In this document: positions 4,356-64,000 of the stretch, in pieces | Layout: each line of letters begins with the position of its first letter | Numbering within the stretch: the first letter of the stretch is position 1 | From: Chloroflexota bacterium | Lineage (GTDB): Bacteria > Chloroflexota > Dehalococcoidia > Lucifugimonadales > UBA3495 | NCBI GenBank assembly: GCA_002721995.1 | Contig: PBMF01000019.1 | Coordinates: forward strand, 6,102 to 70,101 | Direction of reading: 5' to 3' | DNA length: 64,000 nucleotides | The notes under the pieces: model-generated | Seen by the model: the letters and a program-made list of their open reading frames with translations, nothing else | What the model was told of the DNA's origin: nothing | Databases searched by the model: none | Translations under genes and position numbers: made by a program

Positions 4356-5066
4356 CTAATGCTCCGCGGCTTCTGACCTGACGGGGTTGTAGGTGACCCT
4401 GACCACCGGCGACTGGGACTCGTTCTTCCACTGGTGGTGTTCGTTGGGCGGCACCAGGATGGAGTCGCCCGCCGTCACCGTGTAGTCCTTGCCGCCGCAG
4501 ACCAGTGTGGCAGTGCCCTCCAGCATGTAGACCACGTGCTCCCACTCGTGGGTGTGACCGCCGGTATCGGCGTGGCTCACCGCGCCGGGCGCCATGGGGT
4601 CGTTGTGGAGCATGACGTAGTTGGGCGCGCCGTCCTTGCTGCCCAGCAGCACGTGCCCCTGGGAGCGGTCCAGCTCGGTGTGGTTGCGGATCACCGGTGG
4701 CACTCCGGTGCCCTGTCCGCCGTCGTTCGGGGCCCCTCCGCTCTGAGCGGCAATCAGAGGGTTGATCTCGATGCGGTGGATGTCGCCCTGGCCGCCGTTG
4801 TTCAGGGTGTAATGGTCAACGTTGGGCGGAATGAACATGGCGTCTCCGGCCTTAACCGGGTACTCCTTGCCGTCGCAGATGAGAGTCCCGCTGCCCTGGA
4901 TGATGTAAACCTCATGCTCCCATTCGTGGATGTGGTGAGAGCTGGTCTCGCCGGGCTTGATGTGGGAGAAAGTCATGGTGCAGGTGGGCGGGTTGTCGTC
5001 CAGGGTCACCAACCGGGCCCTGGCGCCGTCGAAGATTTCGTTCGTGCTTCTGATTACCGGTTCCAT
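4356..5066 (-). CDS. bicupin (two tandem cupin domains) protein
   Basis: Two cupin barrels with His-rich metal motifs: SSHHIHEWEHEVYI and GGHTHEWEHVVYM. SD AGGAGG upstream of the ATG. Confidence 0.8.
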   Translation of the reverse strand: MEPVIRSTNEIFDGARARLVTLDDNPPTCTMTFSHIKPGETSSHHIHEWEHEVYIIQGSGTLICDGKEYPVKAGDAMFIPPNVDHYTLNNGGQGDIHRIEINPLIAAQSGGAPNDGGQGTGVPPVIRNHTELDRSQGHVLLGSKDGAPNYVMLHNDPMAPGAVSHADTGGHTHEWEHVVYMLEGTATLVCGGKDYTVTAGDSILVPPNEHHQWKNESQSPVVRVTYNPVRSEAAEH

Positions 5067-5108
5067 GGGAATTTCCTCCTAGATTGCTCGATTGGATGGT
5101 TGTTTCTA

Positions 5109-6128
5109 TTACTCCACCCGGTAGACCCGGACGGCGGTGTCGTGGAACATCTGCACCCGCTCGGTCTCCGAGTAGCCCTTGGTCAGGCGCTTGAAGGCGT
5201 TGTAGAGGATGTTGTAGGAATGGCCCACCTTGTCCGGCGGGAAATTGCTTTCGATCATGCAGCGGTCAGGCCCGAACTGCTGGATGCAGTAGTCCATATA
5301 GGGGGCCATGGTCTCGGCCAGTTCCTCGGAGCCGATGGGTTTGTCCCTGGCAGCCCAGTCGTAGCCGGTTCGGGGCTGGCCGATGCCGCCCAGCTTGACC
5401 ACCACGTTGGGGCACTTGGCCACCTCGGCGATGCTCTTCTGCCAGGTGGGGATCACCTCATCGTCCCGGTTGGCGTAGGGGCCGACCCGCAGCATGCCGC
5501 CGATGTGGTTCAAGATGATGGTCAGGTCCGGTACTGCTTGGGCGAACTCCACCAACTGGGGAAGTTGGGGGAAGTACATCCAGGCGTCGAAGGTCAGGCC
5601 CATGCGCGCCAACACCCTGGCCCCCGCCCGGAAGTTTTCGTCGGGCATCTGGTCCTTCAGACCGTAGGAGTTGTTGGCGATGCGGGGGTCGTCGTCCCAG
5701 GTGAGCCCGTGGCGGATGCCCCGGAAACGCTGGGGGCTGGCGGCTTGCAGGGCCTCCAAAACTGGGGCCACTCCCTCGCCCAGGTTCAGGTTGGCGTGAC
5801 CGACGATGGACGCCGCGGCCTTGGCTGGTCCGTAGAGTCCGGTGGCAGCGGCGGCTGCCAGGCCCTGGACGAACTCCACCTCGCCCACCGGCTTCATCTC
5901 CTCGGGCCCGTCGGGACGGTACATGGCCCGGGTCTCGACGAACACCGTGGAGCGCACGTTGTGCCCGCTGTTCAGGTCGTCATACAGCTCGGGCAGCAGG
6001 TAATTCTGGTAGGGGATGCGGGCCGGACGCCGGTCCCAGAAGTGGTGGTGAGGGTCGCAGATGGGAATGTCCGGCTCCAAGGTCTCCTCTTGGGTCAGGG
6101 AATGCCAGTCGTTGCCTCCGAAGGGCAT
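5109..6128 (-). CDS. amidohydrolase-2 family metal-dependent hydrolase (TIM barrel)
   Basis: N-terminal CDPHHHFWD metal motif typical of the PF04909-like family. SD GGAGG upstream. Confidence 0.8.
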   Translation of the reverse strand: MPFGGNDWHSLTQEETLEPDIPICDPHHHFWDRRPARIPYQNYLLPELYDDLNSGHNVRSTVFVETRAMYRPDGPEEMKPVGEVEFVQGLAAAAATGLYGPAKAAASIVGHANLNLGEGVAPVLEALQAASPQRFRGIRHGLTWDDDPRIANNSYGLKDQMPDENFRAGARVLARMGLTFDAWMYFPQLPQLVEFAQAVPDLTIILNHIGGMLRVGPYANRDDEVIPTWQKSIAEVAKCPNVVVKLGGIGQPRTGYDWAARDKPIGSEELAETMAPYMDYCIQQFGPDRCMIESNFPPDKVGHSYNILYNAFKRLTKGYSETERVQMFHDTAVRVYRVE

Positions 6129-15065: not shown

Positions 15066-15369
15066 GGGGCCCTTCTCCTAAAAGCCTAAAGCCCTGCCGC
15101 AGGGGCGGTCAGGCGTAAGTTGGCGCTATCGTACTCACCGCTAGGCCCTCTGTCAATTTGGTTTGGACACCGTTTCAAATTTGACCTTTGGTGCCTGTTG
15201 TGGAAAAATTTGTCTTGGAACGGGACCCGCCAACGACTGGTTGGGACGACCTGTTCCCGTGCCCCGGCATCCCTTTGCAGCCAGACCTCGGCGCCCCGGC
15301 TTTAAGCTCAGAAACCGCCAAACCGGCCCAACGTAACACTCGCATACCTGATGGGTCACAGGGGGTAGG

Positions 15370-16881
15370 GTGATAGGTGAACCCACTTGGACTCGGGAAA
15401 AACTGCAACGGCTGGTCCACCGTGAGATCGGCGACTATCAGTTGATCGTCGTATCCAACCGCCAACCGTACGTCCACGAATTGGTTGAAGGCCGGATCAG
15501 CATCAACTCGCCGGCCGGCGGACTGACCACCGCCATCGATCCCCTCATGCAGGAGTGCGGCGGCACGTGGGTCGCCTACGGAGGCGGCGAGGGCGATTAC
15601 TACGCCGTTGACGAGAAGAACCGAGTCCAGGTCCCGCCCGATGACCCCTCCTATACGCTGCGGCTGGTCTGGCTCACTGAGCAGGAACAGAAGGGCTACT
15701 ACGCGGGGTTCTCCAATGAGGGACTCTGGCCCCTCTGTCACAACGCCTTCATCGAGCCGACTTTCCAGGCCGCCGACTGGGAGACCTACAAGACGGTGAA
15801 CAACGTGTTCGCCAGGCAGGTCTTGGACGAGATTGACGGCCGGCCCGCCGCGGTGTTTACCCAGGACTACCATCTGGCCCTGCTGCCCCGCCTGCTCAGG
15901 GAGGCCGATCCAGACATCATCACCGGTCAGTTCTGGCATATACCCTGGCCGACCTACGAGATATTCCGTATCTGCCCCTGGGGCGACCAATTGCTGGACG
16001 GTCTCCTGGGCAACGACCTGTTGGGCTTCCATATCGGCGACCATTGTGACAACTTCATGGAGGCCGCCTCCAGGGTCATCGGTTCCCAGGTGCACGATGA
16101 GTACAACCTGGTCTACCAGAAGGAGGAGCCGACCATCGTCCGGCCCTTCCCTATCAGCGTGGACTTCGAGGCGATCAATGAGGAGTCCCAGAGCCCGGAG
16201 GTGACGCTGGAGATTGAGCGGGTGATGGATGAGTTCGACCTGGGCGGCAAGGTTGTGGGTCTGGGTATCGACCGCATCGACTACACCAAGGGGATTCCAC
16301 ACCGCATCCGGTCCATCGGACGGTTCTTCGAGAAGAACCCCGAATATACCGGAAAGGTCGTCTTTGTCCAGGCTGGCGTGATGAGCCGGGCCAACATCCA
16401 CGCCTACCAACAATTGTCGGCGCAGATCGACCACGAACTTGAAGACGTCAATGGACGGTTCAGAACCGACAACTGGCAGCCCATCATCTATCTGCCGGAC
16501 AATCTGCCCGCGGTCACCCTGGCGGCCCTGCGGCGAATCGCCCGGTTCTGCGTGGTCAGTTCCCTGCACGACGGCATGAACCTGGTGGCCAAGGAATATG
16601 TGGCCAGCAGGTTCGACGAAGACGGCGTGCTGATTCTCAGTCCCTTCACCGGTTCGGCCCACGAGCTGACCGACTCGCTGATCGTGAACCCCTACGCCAC
16701 CGAGGAATTCGCCGATGCCATCTTGGACGCAGTGGAGATGCCCGTGGAAGAACGGCGGGAGCGCATGGTCAGGATGCGGGACGTGGTGGAGGAGAACAAC
16801 ATCTACATGTGGGCCGCCAGGCTCTTTGTGGACATGATGCAGGGAGCCCGCCGGTCCCGCCGGCCCATCCGGTCCCTTTAA
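15370..16881 (+). CDS. otsA: alpha,alpha-trehalose-phosphate synthase
   Basis: VSNRQPY and GLWPLCHN motifs; GT20 length. Followed by otsB. GTG start. Confidence 0.9.
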   Translation: MIGEPTWTREKLQRLVHREIGDYQLIVVSNRQPYVHELVEGRISINSPAGGLTTAIDPLMQECGGTWVAYGGGEGDYYAVDEKNRVQVPPDDPSYTLRLVWLTEQEQKGYYAGFSNEGLWPLCHNAFIEPTFQAADWETYKTVNNVFARQVLDEIDGRPAAVFTQDYHLALLPRLLREADPDIITGQFWHIPWPTYEIFRICPWGDQLLDGLLGNDLLGFHIGDHCDNFMEAASRVIGSQVHDEYNLVYQKEEPTIVRPFPISVDFEAINEESQSPEVTLEIERVMDEFDLGGKVVGLGIDRIDYTKGIPHRIRSIGRFFEKNPEYTGKVVFVQAGVMSRANIHAYQQLSAQIDHELEDVNGRFRTDNWQPIIYLPDNLPAVTLAALRRIARFCVVSSLHDGMNLVAKEYVASRFDEDGVLILSPFTGSAHELTDSLIVNPYATEEFADAILDAVEMPVEERRERMVRMRDVVEENNIYMWAARLFVDMMQGARRSRRPIRSL

Positions 16882-19041: not shown

Positions 19042-19142
19042 AGCGGATATCCCCCACCGGATACCTACTGTGGTGGCTGGGGACTGATTGGTGATACCCT
19101 GTTGGCAATCTGACCAGTGGGAAAAGTACCCAGGAGGGCGTC

Positions 19143-19796
19143 ATGGCCGAAGAGTCCCAAGCTGCGAAAAAGGATAATGAAGCGGTCCGTGTCGCTGTCT
19201 GGTACGACTACGTTTGACCCTGGTGCTACGTCGGCCTGGAGAGAGTCGACAAGCTGGCCAACGAGTACGAGATAAACGTGGAGGGCCGCGCATACCTGTT
19301 GCGTCCTGACACCCCCAAGGAGGGCCGGGAACGGCCCCAGCGCCCCGGCGAGACCGCCGATGAGCTCTCAGAGCCACTGCGGGGACAGGCCAAGGAAGCG
19401 GGGCTGATCATGAAGCCCCCGGCCCGGACGCCCAACACTCTCTACGCCCTGGAAGCCACCGAGTACGCCCAGCAGCATGGCAAGTTCCTGGAGTTCCACC
19501 ACGCCGCCTACAAGGCGTTCTGGGAAGACCGCAAGGACCTGGGAGAGCTTGAAGTGCTCCACGCCGTGGCCCATGAAACCGGCTTGGACGCCGACGAGAT
19601 GGTGAAGCACCTGGAAGAAAAGACCTATGCCGAGACGGTGATGGCCCAGTACCAAGAGGCCTTGCAGTACGGCATCAGCGGCATACCCACCTTCCTGGTG
19701 GGGAACCTGCTCTTCACCGGCGCCCACCCCTACAACATCTTCAAGTCCGCCATGGAGCGCTTCTTGACCGAAGGTGTGCCACCGGCTTCCGAGTAG
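19143..19796 (+). CDS. DsbA/FrnE-like thiol oxidoreductase with in-frame TGA at the CxxC position (candidate selenoprotein, U-P-W-C)
   Basis: SD AGGAGG (19132-19137) plus ATG at 19143. The translation reads VRVAVWYDYV-TGA(19215-19217)-PWCYVG, in frame with ORF 19278..19796, which carries GISGIPTFLVGN. Confidence 0.7.
19230..19250 (+). promoter_or_regulatory. candidate bacterial SECIS-like hairpin
   Basis: GUCGGC/GUCGAC forms a 6-bp stem (one G-U pair) with a G-containing 9-nt loop. It starts 12 nt after the in-frame UGA. A longer alternative pairing is 19229-19236 with 19256-19263. Confidence 0.35.
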
Positions 19797-19813: not shown

Positions 19814-19852
19814 AAAAAAGAAAAGGCCCGCCATTGGCGGGCCTTTTCTTTT
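19814..19852. terminator. bidirectional rho-independent terminator
   Basis: 8-bp GC stem GGCCCGCC/GGCGGGCC with a 3-nt loop, flanked by an A-run and a T-run. Lies between the convergent dsbA-like and ABC genes. Confidence 0.8.
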
Positions 19853-34269: not shown

Positions 34270-35190
34270 CTAGTCCTCGGACGGAACGCCGTCTTTGTGG
34301 GGGAGCAGCACCGAATATAGGAAACTGTGGACCGGAGTCGGCACCCCGAACTGCTTGCCCAGCCTGACGACGGCACCGGAGAGGGCGTCCAGTTCTGTGG
34401 GTTGGCTGGCCTCGTAGTCGGCGTGCATCGAAATCTGGAATTCCGGAAGGGATTCAATCCATTTCAAAGACTGTTGGGTCAGGTCTTCGGAGAGTTCGAT
34501 CCCCTTGGCGAGTCCCACGGCAAGAGCCTCGTCCATCGCGTCGCAGAACATCTTGCGGGCGTCGGGGAACTGGAGCAGTTCCTTGGCCTTGGTTTGCGCG
34601 GCGCTGGTGACCCCTGCCAGGGAGCTCAACACCACGAATTTTTCCCAGAGCACCTTCATGGGGTCGGGGGAAATCTCGGTCTCGATGCCGGCGTCCCGGA
34701 ACGCTTTGCGAAATTCCAAGGCGCGGAGATTCTCGGTGTCCTGTACCTCGCCGAAGGAGATCCTGGCCGGCACATCTTCGACGATCATCCCCGGTTCGCT
34801 GATGTGGGCCGATGCCCAAAATGACCCGGGAAGAATATTGCCCGAGCCCAGAACGGCCCCCAGATGTTCGTAGCTCTCCACGCCGTTCTGCAGGGTGATG
34901 ACCGCAGTGTCAGGCCCCACCAAGGGCTTCAACGCCGTGATCACGTGCCGGTTGTGAAAGGTCTTGACCGTGAAGAGGACCAGGTCCACCGGGCCGACCT
35001 CGGCCGGGTCGTCGGTGGCGTTGACCTGGACCACGAATTCTCTGTCCGGGCGGACCAGCTGCAGGCCGTTCTCCTTGATGGCTTCCAGGTGGGGGCCCCG
35101 GGCGATGAGGGACACGTCATTGCCCGCCTTGGCCAGCAGACCGCCAAGACAGCCGCCGACACCGCCCGCTCCCATGACTGCTATGCGCAT
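34270..35190 (-). CDS. 2-dehydropantoate 2-reductase family oxidoreductase (paralog 2)
   Basis: MRIAVMGAGGVGG Rossmann motif. ApbA/PanE N- and C-terminal domains. Confidence 0.8.
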   Translation of the reverse strand: MRIAVMGAGGVGGCLGGLLAKAGNDVSLIARGPHLEAIKENGLQLVRPDREFVVQVNATDDPAEVGPVDLVLFTVKTFHNRHVITALKPLVGPDTAVITLQNGVESYEHLGAVLGSGNILPGSFWASAHISEPGMIVEDVPARISFGEVQDTENLRALEFRKAFRDAGIETEISPDPMKVLWEKFVVLSSLAGVTSAAQTKAKELLQFPDARKMFCDAMDEALAVGLAKGIELSEDLTQQSLKWIESLPEFQISMHADYEASQPTELDALSGAVVRLGKQFGVPTPVHSFLYSVLLPHKDGVPSED

Positions 35191-36113
35191 GGGGCCTCCG
35201 GAGGCCCGGATATATGGGGCAGGAGCATGGTGTTTACCAGGTCGTGGATGGGTGTCGGCACGCCCAGGTTGCGGCCGATGCGTCCCACACAGCCGACGAT
35301 GGCCTCCAACTCCAGGGGCTTGCCGTCTGCCAGGTCGATCTGCATGGAACCACGGGCGCCCAATGGCCGGTTGGCGATGAGACTGATTGCGGTCTGAACG
35401 TCATCGTCTCCGATATCCACGCCACTGGCATTGGCCACCGCCGCCACCTCGGCTATCGCCATTTTGAACAGCTCGGCCCCTTGGGGCATGTCCATGAGGT
35501 CCCTGGGCGCGATCCGCGCCACCGAGGCCAGTCCGTTGGCCGGGGTGTTGTACAGCACCTTGGACCAGAGGACCTTGTCCACGTCGTCGGACAGCTCCGT
35601 CGTGATGCCACCCTTGGTCAGCGTTTCCTGGACCGCCTCGGCCCTGGGTGTGCGGGGGCCGGCGGACTCGCCGAATGCGATGCGGGCGGGGAAGGTCCCC
35701 TGTCTCACCACACCGGGGGATATGATGTTGCCAATCATGTAGGCCGCTCCGGGCAGCACGTGATCGGCGCCAATCACATCGGCGATTTCGCCCGCGCTCT
35801 CAACCCCGTTCTGCAGTGTGAGCACCAGGCTGTCATCCCCGATGAGGGGTTTTAGCAGTGGGATGGCTTCTTGGTTCTGGTAGGTCTTCACGGTGAAGAG
35901 CACCAGGTCCACCGGGCCCACTTGGGACGGGTCATCGGTGGCTGGGACATTTACCTTGAAACTGTCCTCCCGCTGCATCACTTCCAGGCCGTTTTGCTGG
36001 ATGGCTTGCAGGTGTGCTCCCCTGGCAATGAGCGTCACATCGGACCCCGCTTGGGCGAGCATCCCGCCGTAGCAGCTTCCGATCCCCCCGGAGCCCATCA
36101 CCGCGATACGCAA
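35181..36113 (-). CDS. 2-dehydropantoate 2-reductase family oxidoreductase (paralog 1)
   Basis: MRIAVMGSGGIGS motif. Tandem paralog of the downstream gene, overlapping it by 10 nt. Confidence 0.8.
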   Translation of the reverse strand: MRIAVMGSGGIGSCYGGMLAQAGSDVTLIARGAHLQAIQQNGLEVMQREDSFKVNVPATDDPSQVGPVDLVLFTVKTYQNQEAIPLLKPLIGDDSLVLTLQNGVESAGEIADVIGADHVLPGAAYMIGNIISPGVVRQGTFPARIAFGESAGPRTPRAEAVQETLTKGGITTELSDDVDKVLWSKVLYNTPANGLASVARIAPRDLMDMPQGAELFKMAIAEVAAVANASGVDIGDDDVQTAISLIANRPLGARGSMQIDLADGKPLELEAIVGCVGRIGRNLGVPTPIHDLVNTMLLPHISGPPEAPCA

Positions 36114-62387: not shown

Positions 62388-63161
62388 CTACGGGCGGTCC
62401 GCTTTTTCTTCGTAGCCTCGGGGTGTGATTACTTTGCCGCCGTGCAGGTAGGTGGTGGAGTTCCCGATGACCACGATGGTGACCATGTCCACCGATGCCG
62501 CTGCCTGCTCCAGTTCTTTTAGGGTGGTTACCATGACCCGCTGTCCGCTGCGGAAGGCGTCACCGACGATGCCGACGGGTGTATCGGCCGGCCGGTGCTT
62601 CAGAAGTATCTCGCGGGCTTCCAACAGTTGGGTCTGGCGGCGTTTGCTGCGGGGGTTATACAGTGCCACCACAAAGTCTCCCTGGGCCGCCGCCTCCAAC
62701 CGGGAACGGATCTTTTCCCAGGGCGTGAGCAGGTTGCTCAGGCTGATGGCGCAGAAGTCCTGCATCAGCGGTGAACCCAGCACCGCGGCGGCGGCCTGCA
62801 TGGCAGACACGCCGGGCACGGTTTCCACCGCCGGGCTTTCGCCGTTCCAACCACGGTCGGTGAGTACCCGGAAGACAGGACCGGACATGCCGTAGATGCC
62901 GGCGTCGCCGGAGGAAACCACGGCCACCGTCTTGCCGGCGTAGGCCGAGTCAACCGCAGCGGCGGCCCGCTCCAGCTCGTGGCCCAATTCCATGGAAACA
63001 ACCTCTTTGCCGGTGATCAGAGACTGTATCTGGTCGATGTAGGCCCGGAAGCCAATGACGACGTCGCTTTGGGCCAGGGCCTGGGAAGCCGCGGGGGCCA
63101 GGTAGTCGGGGTCTCCGGGGCCGAGGCCCACCAGGAATATCTTGCCGGATGGTGTGGTCAT
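62388..63161 (-). CDS. cobJ: precorrin-3B C17-methyltransferase
   Basis: IFLVGLGPGDPDYL motif. SAM-dependent tetrapyrrole methylase family. Follows cbiG. Confidence 0.85.
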   Translation of the reverse strand: MTTPSGKIFLVGLGPGDPDYLAPAASQALAQSDVVIGFRAYIDQIQSLITGKEVVSMELGHELERAAAAVDSAYAGKTVAVVSSGDAGIYGMSGPVFRVLTDRGWNGESPAVETVPGVSAMQAAAAVLGSPLMQDFCAISLSNLLTPWEKIRSRLEAAAQGDFVVALYNPRSKRRQTQLLEAREILLKHRPADTPVGIVGDAFRSGQRVMVTTLKELEQAAASVDMVTIVVIGNSTTYLHGGKVITPRGYEEKADRP

Positions 63162-64000
63162 CTACTAGCGCTCCCAGCAGTTTCAAATGTCTTTCGAGCT
63201 ATTGCTATGGTGGCCCGCTCGGTCTTCTTGCGAGTAACCAATAATTCATCTGCCCCGGCGGTCAAGAGCGCCGACGGCTCGGCCACTCCCCAGACTCCAA
63301 CCAGGCCGTGGGCCCGCTCGGACTTGGAGGTGATCGCACCGGGGTTTGTTTCAAACACCCCGTTCAGTTCTCCGGCCCCGTGGCAGACCAACGGGACGCC
63401 GTGGCGCTCGGCCAACTGCAACAGGCCGGGTTCGGCTTGCTTGATGTCAGCGGTGGCGATGGCTGAGAGGCATTCTGGCGCAAGACCGTGCTCCCGGCAG
63501 GTCTCGACGAGAAAGGACTCCAGTTCTTCCACCGGGACACCCCTTCGGCAGCCCATGCCGACGACTAGGCTGCGGGGCCGGTAGACCACGGTGGTCTTGT
63601 CGGCCAGCATTGTTTCCAACGGGTCCGTTTTGTCGGTCACGATGAGGGCGGCGGCACAGGCCGAAGCCGCCAGATCCTCCAAGGTTTGGTAAACCGTGAT
63701 GTTCTCGGGAAGGGGCTTGTCATGGGGCCACCAGTCCGGTTCTCCCGCCCCCTGCCAAAGCCCGATGGGTTGGCCGTTGATCACGGCGGCGCTGGCCCGG
63801 GTGACGGCGGAAGAATCGGCCACCAACCGCCAGCCGCACCCCTGGCCCAGCAGGTCGACGGCCAAGGTGCCCGAGGCATGGGAGGCCGACGTTATCACCG
63901 GCGTGGCTCCCAGATGCCGGGCGACGTCCTGGGCCAGCCTGTCAGCCCCACCGATGTGCCCGGAGATAAGGCTGACGCAGAACCTGCCGGCGTCGTCCAC
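63158..64000 (-). CDS. cbiG: cobalt-precorrin-5A hydrolase CbiG (N-terminus beyond the window edge)
   Basis: SLISGHIGGADRLAQ..LGATPVITSAS and C-terminal VVGMGCRRG motifs. Truncated by the window end. Confidence 0.8.
   Translation of the reverse strand: MDDAGRFCVSLISGHIGGADRLAQDVARHLGATPVITSASHASGTLAVDLLGQGCGWRLVADSSAVTRASAAVINGQPIGLWQGAGEPDWWPHDKPLPENITVYQTLEDLAASACAAALIVTDKTDPLETMLADKTTVVYRPRSLVVGMGCRRGVPVEELESFLVETCREHGLAPECLSAIATADIKQAEPGLLQLAERHGVPLVCHGAGELNGVFETNPGAITSKSERAHGLVGVWGVAEPSALLTAGADELLVTRKKTERATIAIARKTFETAGSASR

Follow-up and report, generated by a model that had tools for sequence, protein, structure and literature searches.

DsbA-like proteins with a UxxC motif (COG2761/PF01323) are an established selenoprotein family (PMC1088965, PMC1794560, PMC13188914), first reported in 2005 from the Sargasso Sea and counting 45 genes in 41 organisms by 2016 (PMC1088965, PMC5029168, PMC13188914). 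The original prediction, which placed DsbA-like selenoproteins in marine metagenomes, agrees in this with a family published since 2005 (PMC1088965, PMC13188914). The SAR202 gene described here shares with "form 1" of the published family the PF01323 domain, Sec where CxxC has its first Cys, a downstream SECIS hairpin, a marine origin, and widespread homologs with Cys; judged by its domain and its UxxC motif, it fits this family. Across SAR202 (two clades, 57 species) the Sec form is fixed, and our searches returned no close Cys form. The BSepDB survey, which confined its selenoprotein search to species having two or more of SelA, SelB, and SelD, lists two Dehalococcoidia MAGs with 49 and 46 selenoproteins (PMC13326102).

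At the level of the Pfam clan, the periplasmic DsbA of E. coli has in common with the SAR202 protein a CxxC-type centre and, presumably, a thioredoxin fold with a helical insert. The SAR202 protein, on the other hand, belongs to the FrnE/COG2761 branch and is probably cytoplasmic, and periplasmic DsbA structures are weak matches to it (E about 1e-5), in the C-terminal half only. The FrnE protein of Deinococcus radiodurans shares the xPWC context (IWSDIACPWCYIG in FrnE, VAVWYDYVUPWCYVG in SAR202), a similar domain length, and the G-x-G-[IV]-P-x-F loop, and has Cys at the position where the SAR202 protein has Sec. FrnE also extends into a C-terminal tail, where a second pair of Cys residues serves to regenerate the active site. 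Unlike FrnE, the SAR202 protein has no second pair, as it ends at residue 217 and contains one Cys. It appears to be FrnE-like in fold and motif but not FrnE-type as to the second Cys pair, and because of the single Cys and the early end its recycling partner would have to differ from that of FrnE.

The SECIS element of E. coli fdhF is likewise a hairpin within the coding sequence just past the UGA, with a G-initial apical loop, at ~21–24 nt from the UGA overall; the loop begins at +21 or +22 in fdhF and at +23 or +24 in SAR202. The fdhF hairpin and the SAR202 hairpins have no sequence similarity. Most SAR202 hairpins are perfect stems of 8–9 bp with a 3-nt loop, while the variant in our window has a bulged A and a GGAG loop, and both kinds would presumably be bound by SelB. 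A further difference from the E. coli fdhF/SelB system is that the SAR202 gene is also under synonymous constraint at codons −5 to −1.

A DsbA/FrnE-like reading frame interrupted by UGA

The window, meaning the whole 64-kb stretch of SAR202 DNA that was analysed, contains the gene on its forward strand, with the following features:

19132–19137, + strand: Shine–Dalgarno sequence AGGAGG, read from the sequence, 5 nt ahead of the start codon
19143–19796, + strand: full coding sequence of the candidate DsbA/FrnE-like selenoprotein, 217 codons including UGA-25, then the stop codon TAG
19215–19217, + strand: in-frame UGA, residue 25, putatively read as selenocysteine; TGA in 113 of 113 related loci, aligned to the leading Cys of CPWC in 5CNW and 3GL5
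19215–19226, + strand: predicted active-site motif U-P-W-C (Sec25, Cys28), from the translation and the alignment to 5CNW and 3GL5
19230–19250, + strand: SECIS-like hairpin with apical loop GGAG at 19238–19241, after a 12-nt spacer from the UGA
19686–19688, + strand: codon of Pro182 (motif GISGIPTF), which would be the cis-Pro of the thioredoxin fold, aligned to FrnE and SCO1869 (cis conformation presumed)
19278–19796, + strand: mis-called short ORF of 172 aa with a GTG start, in the same frame as the full coding sequence, an artefact of the UGA being taken as a stop
19816–19852, no strand assigned: hairpin resembling a bidirectional intrinsic terminator, GGCCCGCC-AUU-GGCGGGCC, with an A run and a U run on its flanks

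From the ATG at 19143, the frame comprises 24 sense codons (MAEESQAAKKDNEAVRVAVWYDYV), the TGA at 19215–19217, and then PWCYVGLERVDKL and onward, closing at the TAG at 19794–19796 when the TGA is read through; this TGA is the only one in frame in the 217 codons (19143–19796). Reading the sequence confirmed the Shine–Dalgarno element and the ATG that had been proposed as its start, and GISGIPTFLVGN was found in the read-through product as had been stated. The 172-aa ORF, said to be continuous with the upstream segment, does lie in the same frame, and a single Pfam DSBA match (PF01323) spans the TGA, covering residues 17–204 and profile positions 2–190 of 191 at E = 4e-34 (118.5 bits against a curated cutoff of 25.6). 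The closest PDB sequences are those of D. radiodurans FrnE, 5CNW and 5CP1 (5CNW at E = 5.5e-17, with residues 8–203 aligned), followed by the putative DsbA oxidoreductase SCO1869 (3GL5, E = 1.5e-14). By these matches the gene is assigned to the DSBA/PF01323 family and, within it, to the FrnE/COG2761 branch. No NCBIfam selenoprotein model matched the DsbA-like product above its cutoff.

The alignments place VRVAVWYDYV-[TGA]-PWCYVG over IRVDIWSDIA-C-PWCYIG and MRVEIWSDIA-C-PWCYVG in 5CNW and 3GL5, so that U-P-W-C meets C-P-W-C column for column, directly after beta1. The expectation that a homologous Cys would align with the TGA was borne out, since the first Cys of CxxC sits there in both structures, and the TGA would accordingly hold the position of the nucleophilic first Cys. 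Cys28 is the sole Cys of the 217-residue product. Towards the C-terminus, GISGIPTF aligns with GITGVPFF in FrnE and GATGVPFF in SCO1869, in the G-x-G-[IV]-P-x-F loop before beta3. Because no hydrophobic N-terminal segment is visible by eye in the translation, the product is probably cytoplasmic. Taken together, these features point to a thiol-disulfide oxidoreductase of the DsbA/FrnE family, of 217 residues, in marine SAR202 (Dehalococcoidia, Chloroflexota).

Several other features of the surrounding DNA were recorded. The element at 19816–19852 (−30.2 kcal/mol, z = −6.72, with 0 of 200 shuffles folding as well) separates the DsbA-like gene from the convergent ABC transporter gene and looks like a bidirectional intrinsic terminator; a consensus terminator scanner gave no report at this site. 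At 34270–36113 on the minus strand, two tandem ketopantoate reductase (ApbA/PanE) paralogs overlap stop to start and adjoin a family III CoA-transferase gene. The right end of the window (62388–64000, minus strand) reaches into a cluster for cobalamin biosynthesis (CbiG, precorrin methylases), which in a locus of the same population (L123:3947–10774) continues with CbiC, CbiX, CbiD, and GlutR. In another related locus (L001:7795–8877), a DDE transposase gene (DDE_Tnp_1) lies between rpiB and a HAD hydrolase gene; the region is otherwise syntenic, and the transposase gene is absent from the window.

Conservation of the UGA codon and of the downstream hairpin

The codon at this column is TGA in all 56 loci from assemblies and metagenomes and in all 57 loci from GTDB species-representative genomes, many of which are closed chromosomes and all of which are titled Chloroflexota, Dehalococcoidia, or SAR202. 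Combined, TGA is found in 113 of 113 related loci and Cys in none, with no frameshifts or other stops. The Shine–Dalgarno element, ATG, TGA, and hairpin are base-for-base identical in three independent assemblies of the window's population (one Logan SRA run, one Tara ENA assembly, and one NCBI assembly). Whether the codon is really TGA rather than TGC or TGT, a doubt raised at the outset, is settled by these identical assemblies together with the 113 loci. The DsbA-like genes form two clades that are 41–47% identical to each other; identity to the window's protein is 64–99% in clade 1 and 43–47% in clade 2. Across both clades, W20, Y21, D22, Y23, position 25, P26, W27, C28, and Y29 are invariant, as are G180, P182, and F184. 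A Cys form was found neither among 5.8 billion proteins searched with the N-terminal 70 residues nor in the GTDB species genomes with the pattern WYDY[IV]C, one of two patterns used in the genome scan.

The public record of this gene is another matter. That the locus would be mis-annotated as a truncated gene was correctly foreseen: the best 120 database homologs are all 142–184 aa long and cover 64–83% of the query, and those with names come from SAR202 MAGs. One gene call (P0121, on a 669-bp ENA contig) reads the Sec UGA as Trp (WYDYIWPWCY); it was evidently made with an alternative genetic code and represents a second type of mis-annotation for the family.

Ahead of the TGA, substitutions follow a coding pattern in the same frame, like that downstream. 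In the 10 codons upstream of the TGA, pairwise differences within clade 1 fall at codon positions 1, 2, and 3 in the proportion 427/183/1270, with 1011 synonymous and 463 non-synonymous changes; the downstream coding sequence gives 903/416/3641, with 3175 synonymous and 1196 non-synonymous. In most clade-1 orthologs an (A)GGAG(G) element stands at an equal distance ahead of the upstream ATG.

Just past the TGA, the original prediction described a hairpin with a 6-bp stem beginning 12 nt downstream; it is there, and the stem reads GUCGGC/GUCGAC. Folded with ViennaRNA, 19230–19250 prefers a stem of 8 bp that has a single bulged A and is capped by a GGAG tetraloop, at −10.0 kcal/mol. Its z-score is −2.43, with equally good folds in 6 of 200 shuffles, and −0.99 when the context is 48 nt. 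The window carries a weaker variant with an AGA codon; most orthologs use CGG for this Arg codon and have a perfect stem of 8–9 bp with a G-initial triloop. Pairing in the 8-bp helix is 97.7% across 82 distinct sequences, compared with 25–51% when the 3' partner is slid by 1–3 columns. Compensatory changes occur at three pairs in 17 cells (C:G to G:C twice, C:G to U:A once), and the observed covariation score was reached by 0 of 500 shuffles. One of these pairs, CUG to UUG together with CGG to CGA, is synonymous at both codons, so only RNA pairing explains the change.

Synonymous diversity in clade 1 tells the same story from the coding side, with a five-fold drop at the hairpin: codons +5 to +11 have a diversity of 0.094, against 0.34 for the spacer and 0.517 for 41 codons elsewhere. 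No variation is seen in the codons of Gly+6 and Val+10, whereas the remaining Gly codons have diversities of 0.46–0.65. The hairpin at 19230–19250 is real and under selection, and the claim of a hairpin at SECIS spacing holds in its position 12 nt after the TGA, its conservation, its covariation, and its synonymous constraint. An Rfam search of 19100–19400 at permissive thresholds returned a chance miRNA match only (E = 4.9). Codons −5 to −1 (19200–19214) are also synonymously near-invariant in 75 clade-1 sequences (Tyr-4 0.05, Asp-3 0.10, Ile-1 0.00), which suggests that the recoding context, or RNA pairing, extends upstream of the UGA.

Probable selenocysteine decoding in SAR202

When 1.39 Mb of SAR202 DNA was screened for in-frame TGAs with conservation on either side, the DsbA-like family and two more emerged. 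One is an ArsM-type SAM methyltransferase of 248 aa (NWFS-U-VAGA), found on contigs that carry clade-1 genes (L001, L060, L061, L065), whose best NCBIfam matches are arsenite-methyltransferase selenoprotein models and PRK11873 (E = 2e-46). The other is an ORF of 93 aa (LDYLAxIG-U-GGHAKVSVDTYARK, with the core IG-U-GGHAK), which lies ~2.3 kb downstream of the clade-2 DsbA-like gene in 19 loci and matches the NCBIfam "CC/Se motif family (seleno)protein" model NF041239 at 34.4 bits, just below the cutoff of 40. Their positions are as follows:

L001, ~15230–15980, − strand: ArsM-type gene with a conserved in-frame TGA at 15661 (GLANWFS-U-VAGAKEG); corresponding TGAs at L060 16001, L061 15776, and L065 10435
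L109:12555, L113:12371, L114:12477, and L041:5365: TGA sites of the 93-aa CC/Se-type ORF, with 15 further clade-2 loci

Both families have covarying hairpins of their own, GGAAGGG-GUG-CCCUUCC or GGAAGGC-GUU-GCCUUCC in the ArsM-type gene and GGUGUC-GGUC-GACACC in the 93-aa ORF. The apical loop begins at +23 or +24 from the U of the UGA in the ArsM-type, CC/Se-type, and DsbA-like genes alike, and one SelB-type reader would fit all three hairpin families. By these sequence features, the SAR202 lineage appears to use Sec in further genes. On L001 the ArsM-type gene has an ABC exporter pair on one side and argS on the other; the window lacks it, and just ~300 bp separate 23621 and 23924 there.

The decoding machinery itself was sought in the same DNA. 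In the 64-kb window, ARAGORN and Rfam reported only a tRNA-Asn and no tRNA-Sec, and Pfam matches to SelA, SelB, or SelD were absent among 50 window ORFs scanned in addition to the candidate gene. In ~20 kb beyond the window ends, reached via the window's own proteins, there was no selA, selB, selD, or tRNA-Sec, and nothing was found in the 1.39 Mb of related SAR202 loci by tblastn with E. coli SelA, SelB, and SelD together with ARAGORN. These regions amount to a few percent of each genome, which makes the result uninformative rather than negative. Annotated plasmids held no Chloroflexota selA, and selA of Miltoncostaea oceani was taken as the query instead; a protein search with its product returned only actinobacterial relatives, at identities of at least 60%. 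The Sec machinery is presumably present in the same genome; the other selenoprotein genes on related contigs and the Dehalococcoidia MAGs of BSepDB (PMC13326102) support this indirectly.

We consider it very likely that UGA-25 encodes selenocysteine under the direction of SelB and a SECIS element, and that the product is a cytoplasmic FrnE-like oxidoreductase with a U-P-W-C centre. Translation would begin at the ATG at 19143, and the UGA at 19215 would be recoded as selenocysteine, rather than as another residue, instead of ending the chain. Recoding would be directed by the hairpin 12 nt downstream, whose G-initial apical loop lies ~23 nt from the UGA and to which a SelB-type elongation factor would bind with its Sec-tRNA(Sec). 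In the finished enzyme, Sec25 would act as the attacking nucleophile and Cys28 as the resolving residue, and the U-P-W-C centre would cycle between the selenol/thiol and the selenenylsulfide. The proposal of a candidate selenoprotein with U-P-W-C is supported by the frame, the Sec/Cys alignment, the fixation of TGA, and the covariation of the hairpin.

Alternative readings and significance

The UGA could instead be read through without Sec, either by a near-cognate tRNA (Trp, Cys, or Arg) or by a Cys-tRNA(UCA) delivered by a SelB-like factor, giving W- or C-P-W-C. In keeping with this, no Sec machinery was seen in the DNA examined (the window, its ends, and the 1.39 Mb of related loci), and C directly follows the UGA in all loci but one, UGA followed by C being a leaky termination context. 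Plain leakiness, however, needs no conserved and covarying hairpin at SelB-type spacing, and hairpins of this geometry accompany two further established selenoprotein families on related contigs. If the product contained Cys, TGC or TGT would be expected somewhere, and neither occurs in any of the 113 loci. If it contained Trp, the nucleophile position would be lost, and Trp at this position of CxxC oxidoreductases inactivates the enzyme. We regard read-through of this kind as very unlikely. A smaller chance still attaches to the existing annotation being right, with translation starting at the GTG at 19278 or nearby to yield a fragment of 172–183 aa and leaving the 24 codons and the TGA untranslated. 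Every public gene call among the best 120 begins downstream, but the called starts vary among orthologs in codon (Leu, Met, Val) and in position, as gene-caller artefacts do. The upstream segment has coding-type substitutions in the same frame, a Shine–Dalgarno element and ATG are conserved ahead of it, and WYDY[IV]-U-PWCY is invariant in clades less than 47% identical. A start at 19278 would delete the active site, as the original prediction argued, since beta1 and the whole redox centre would be missing; a predicted model of residues 26–217 alone is poor (mean pLDDT 67.4), with the thioredoxin half badly formed and the helical insert at block pLDDT values of 81–97.

That the locus is a pseudogene, contains a sequencing or assembly error, or belongs to a genome with a reassigned UGA has next to no probability in our estimation. 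The one public call that reads the TGA as Trp could be cited in favour of reassignment, but it comes from the 669-bp contig called with an alternative code. Error and decay are at odds with three identical assemblies and with a TGA fixed in 113 loci and 57 species free of frameshifts and other stops. Within the window, UGA serves as an ordinary stop, ending 5 of 43 Pfam-supported genes (TAG ends 26 and TAA 12); so many TAG and so few TGA stops seemed unusual to us for a genome of 62% G+C. A screen for TGA-bridged ORFs gave antisense-frame artefacts only, with no other coding-like in-frame TGA in the window. Because UGA is an ordinary stop and no second coding-like in-frame TGA exists there, a reassigned code is excluded. 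A pair of ORFs at 4356–6128 (minus strand), considered as a TGA-split gene, was rejected: these are separate Amidohydro_2-like (339 aa) and bicupin (236 aa) genes in the same frame, with two stops in a row and a short spacer between them.

Returning to selenocysteine insertion, a stronger version would hold that the enzyme is obligately selenium-dependent in SAR202 and that the recoding signal may extend beyond the downstream hairpin to codons −5 to −1. We think this unlikely; if true, a lineage dominant in the deep ocean would have a variant SECIS context, and a requirement for selenium would be linked to SAR202 redox metabolism. The gene is a further case of a selenoprotein class known for ~20 years and reveals no new mechanism. 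Its useful outcome is a corrected gene model, along with a Sec form fixed across SAR202. The public calls of the DsbA-like gene examined here are truncated and lack the catalytic centre, or else give Trp for the UGA. A conserved redox enzyme is therefore under-reported in SAR202 proteomes, and so, more broadly, are the selenoproteins of the group. Together, the DsbA-like, ArsM-type, and CC/Se-type genes indicate that pelagic SAR202 use selenocysteine routinely. As SAR202 is an abundant deep-ocean group, this bears on the need for selenium, as a trace element, in the dark ocean.
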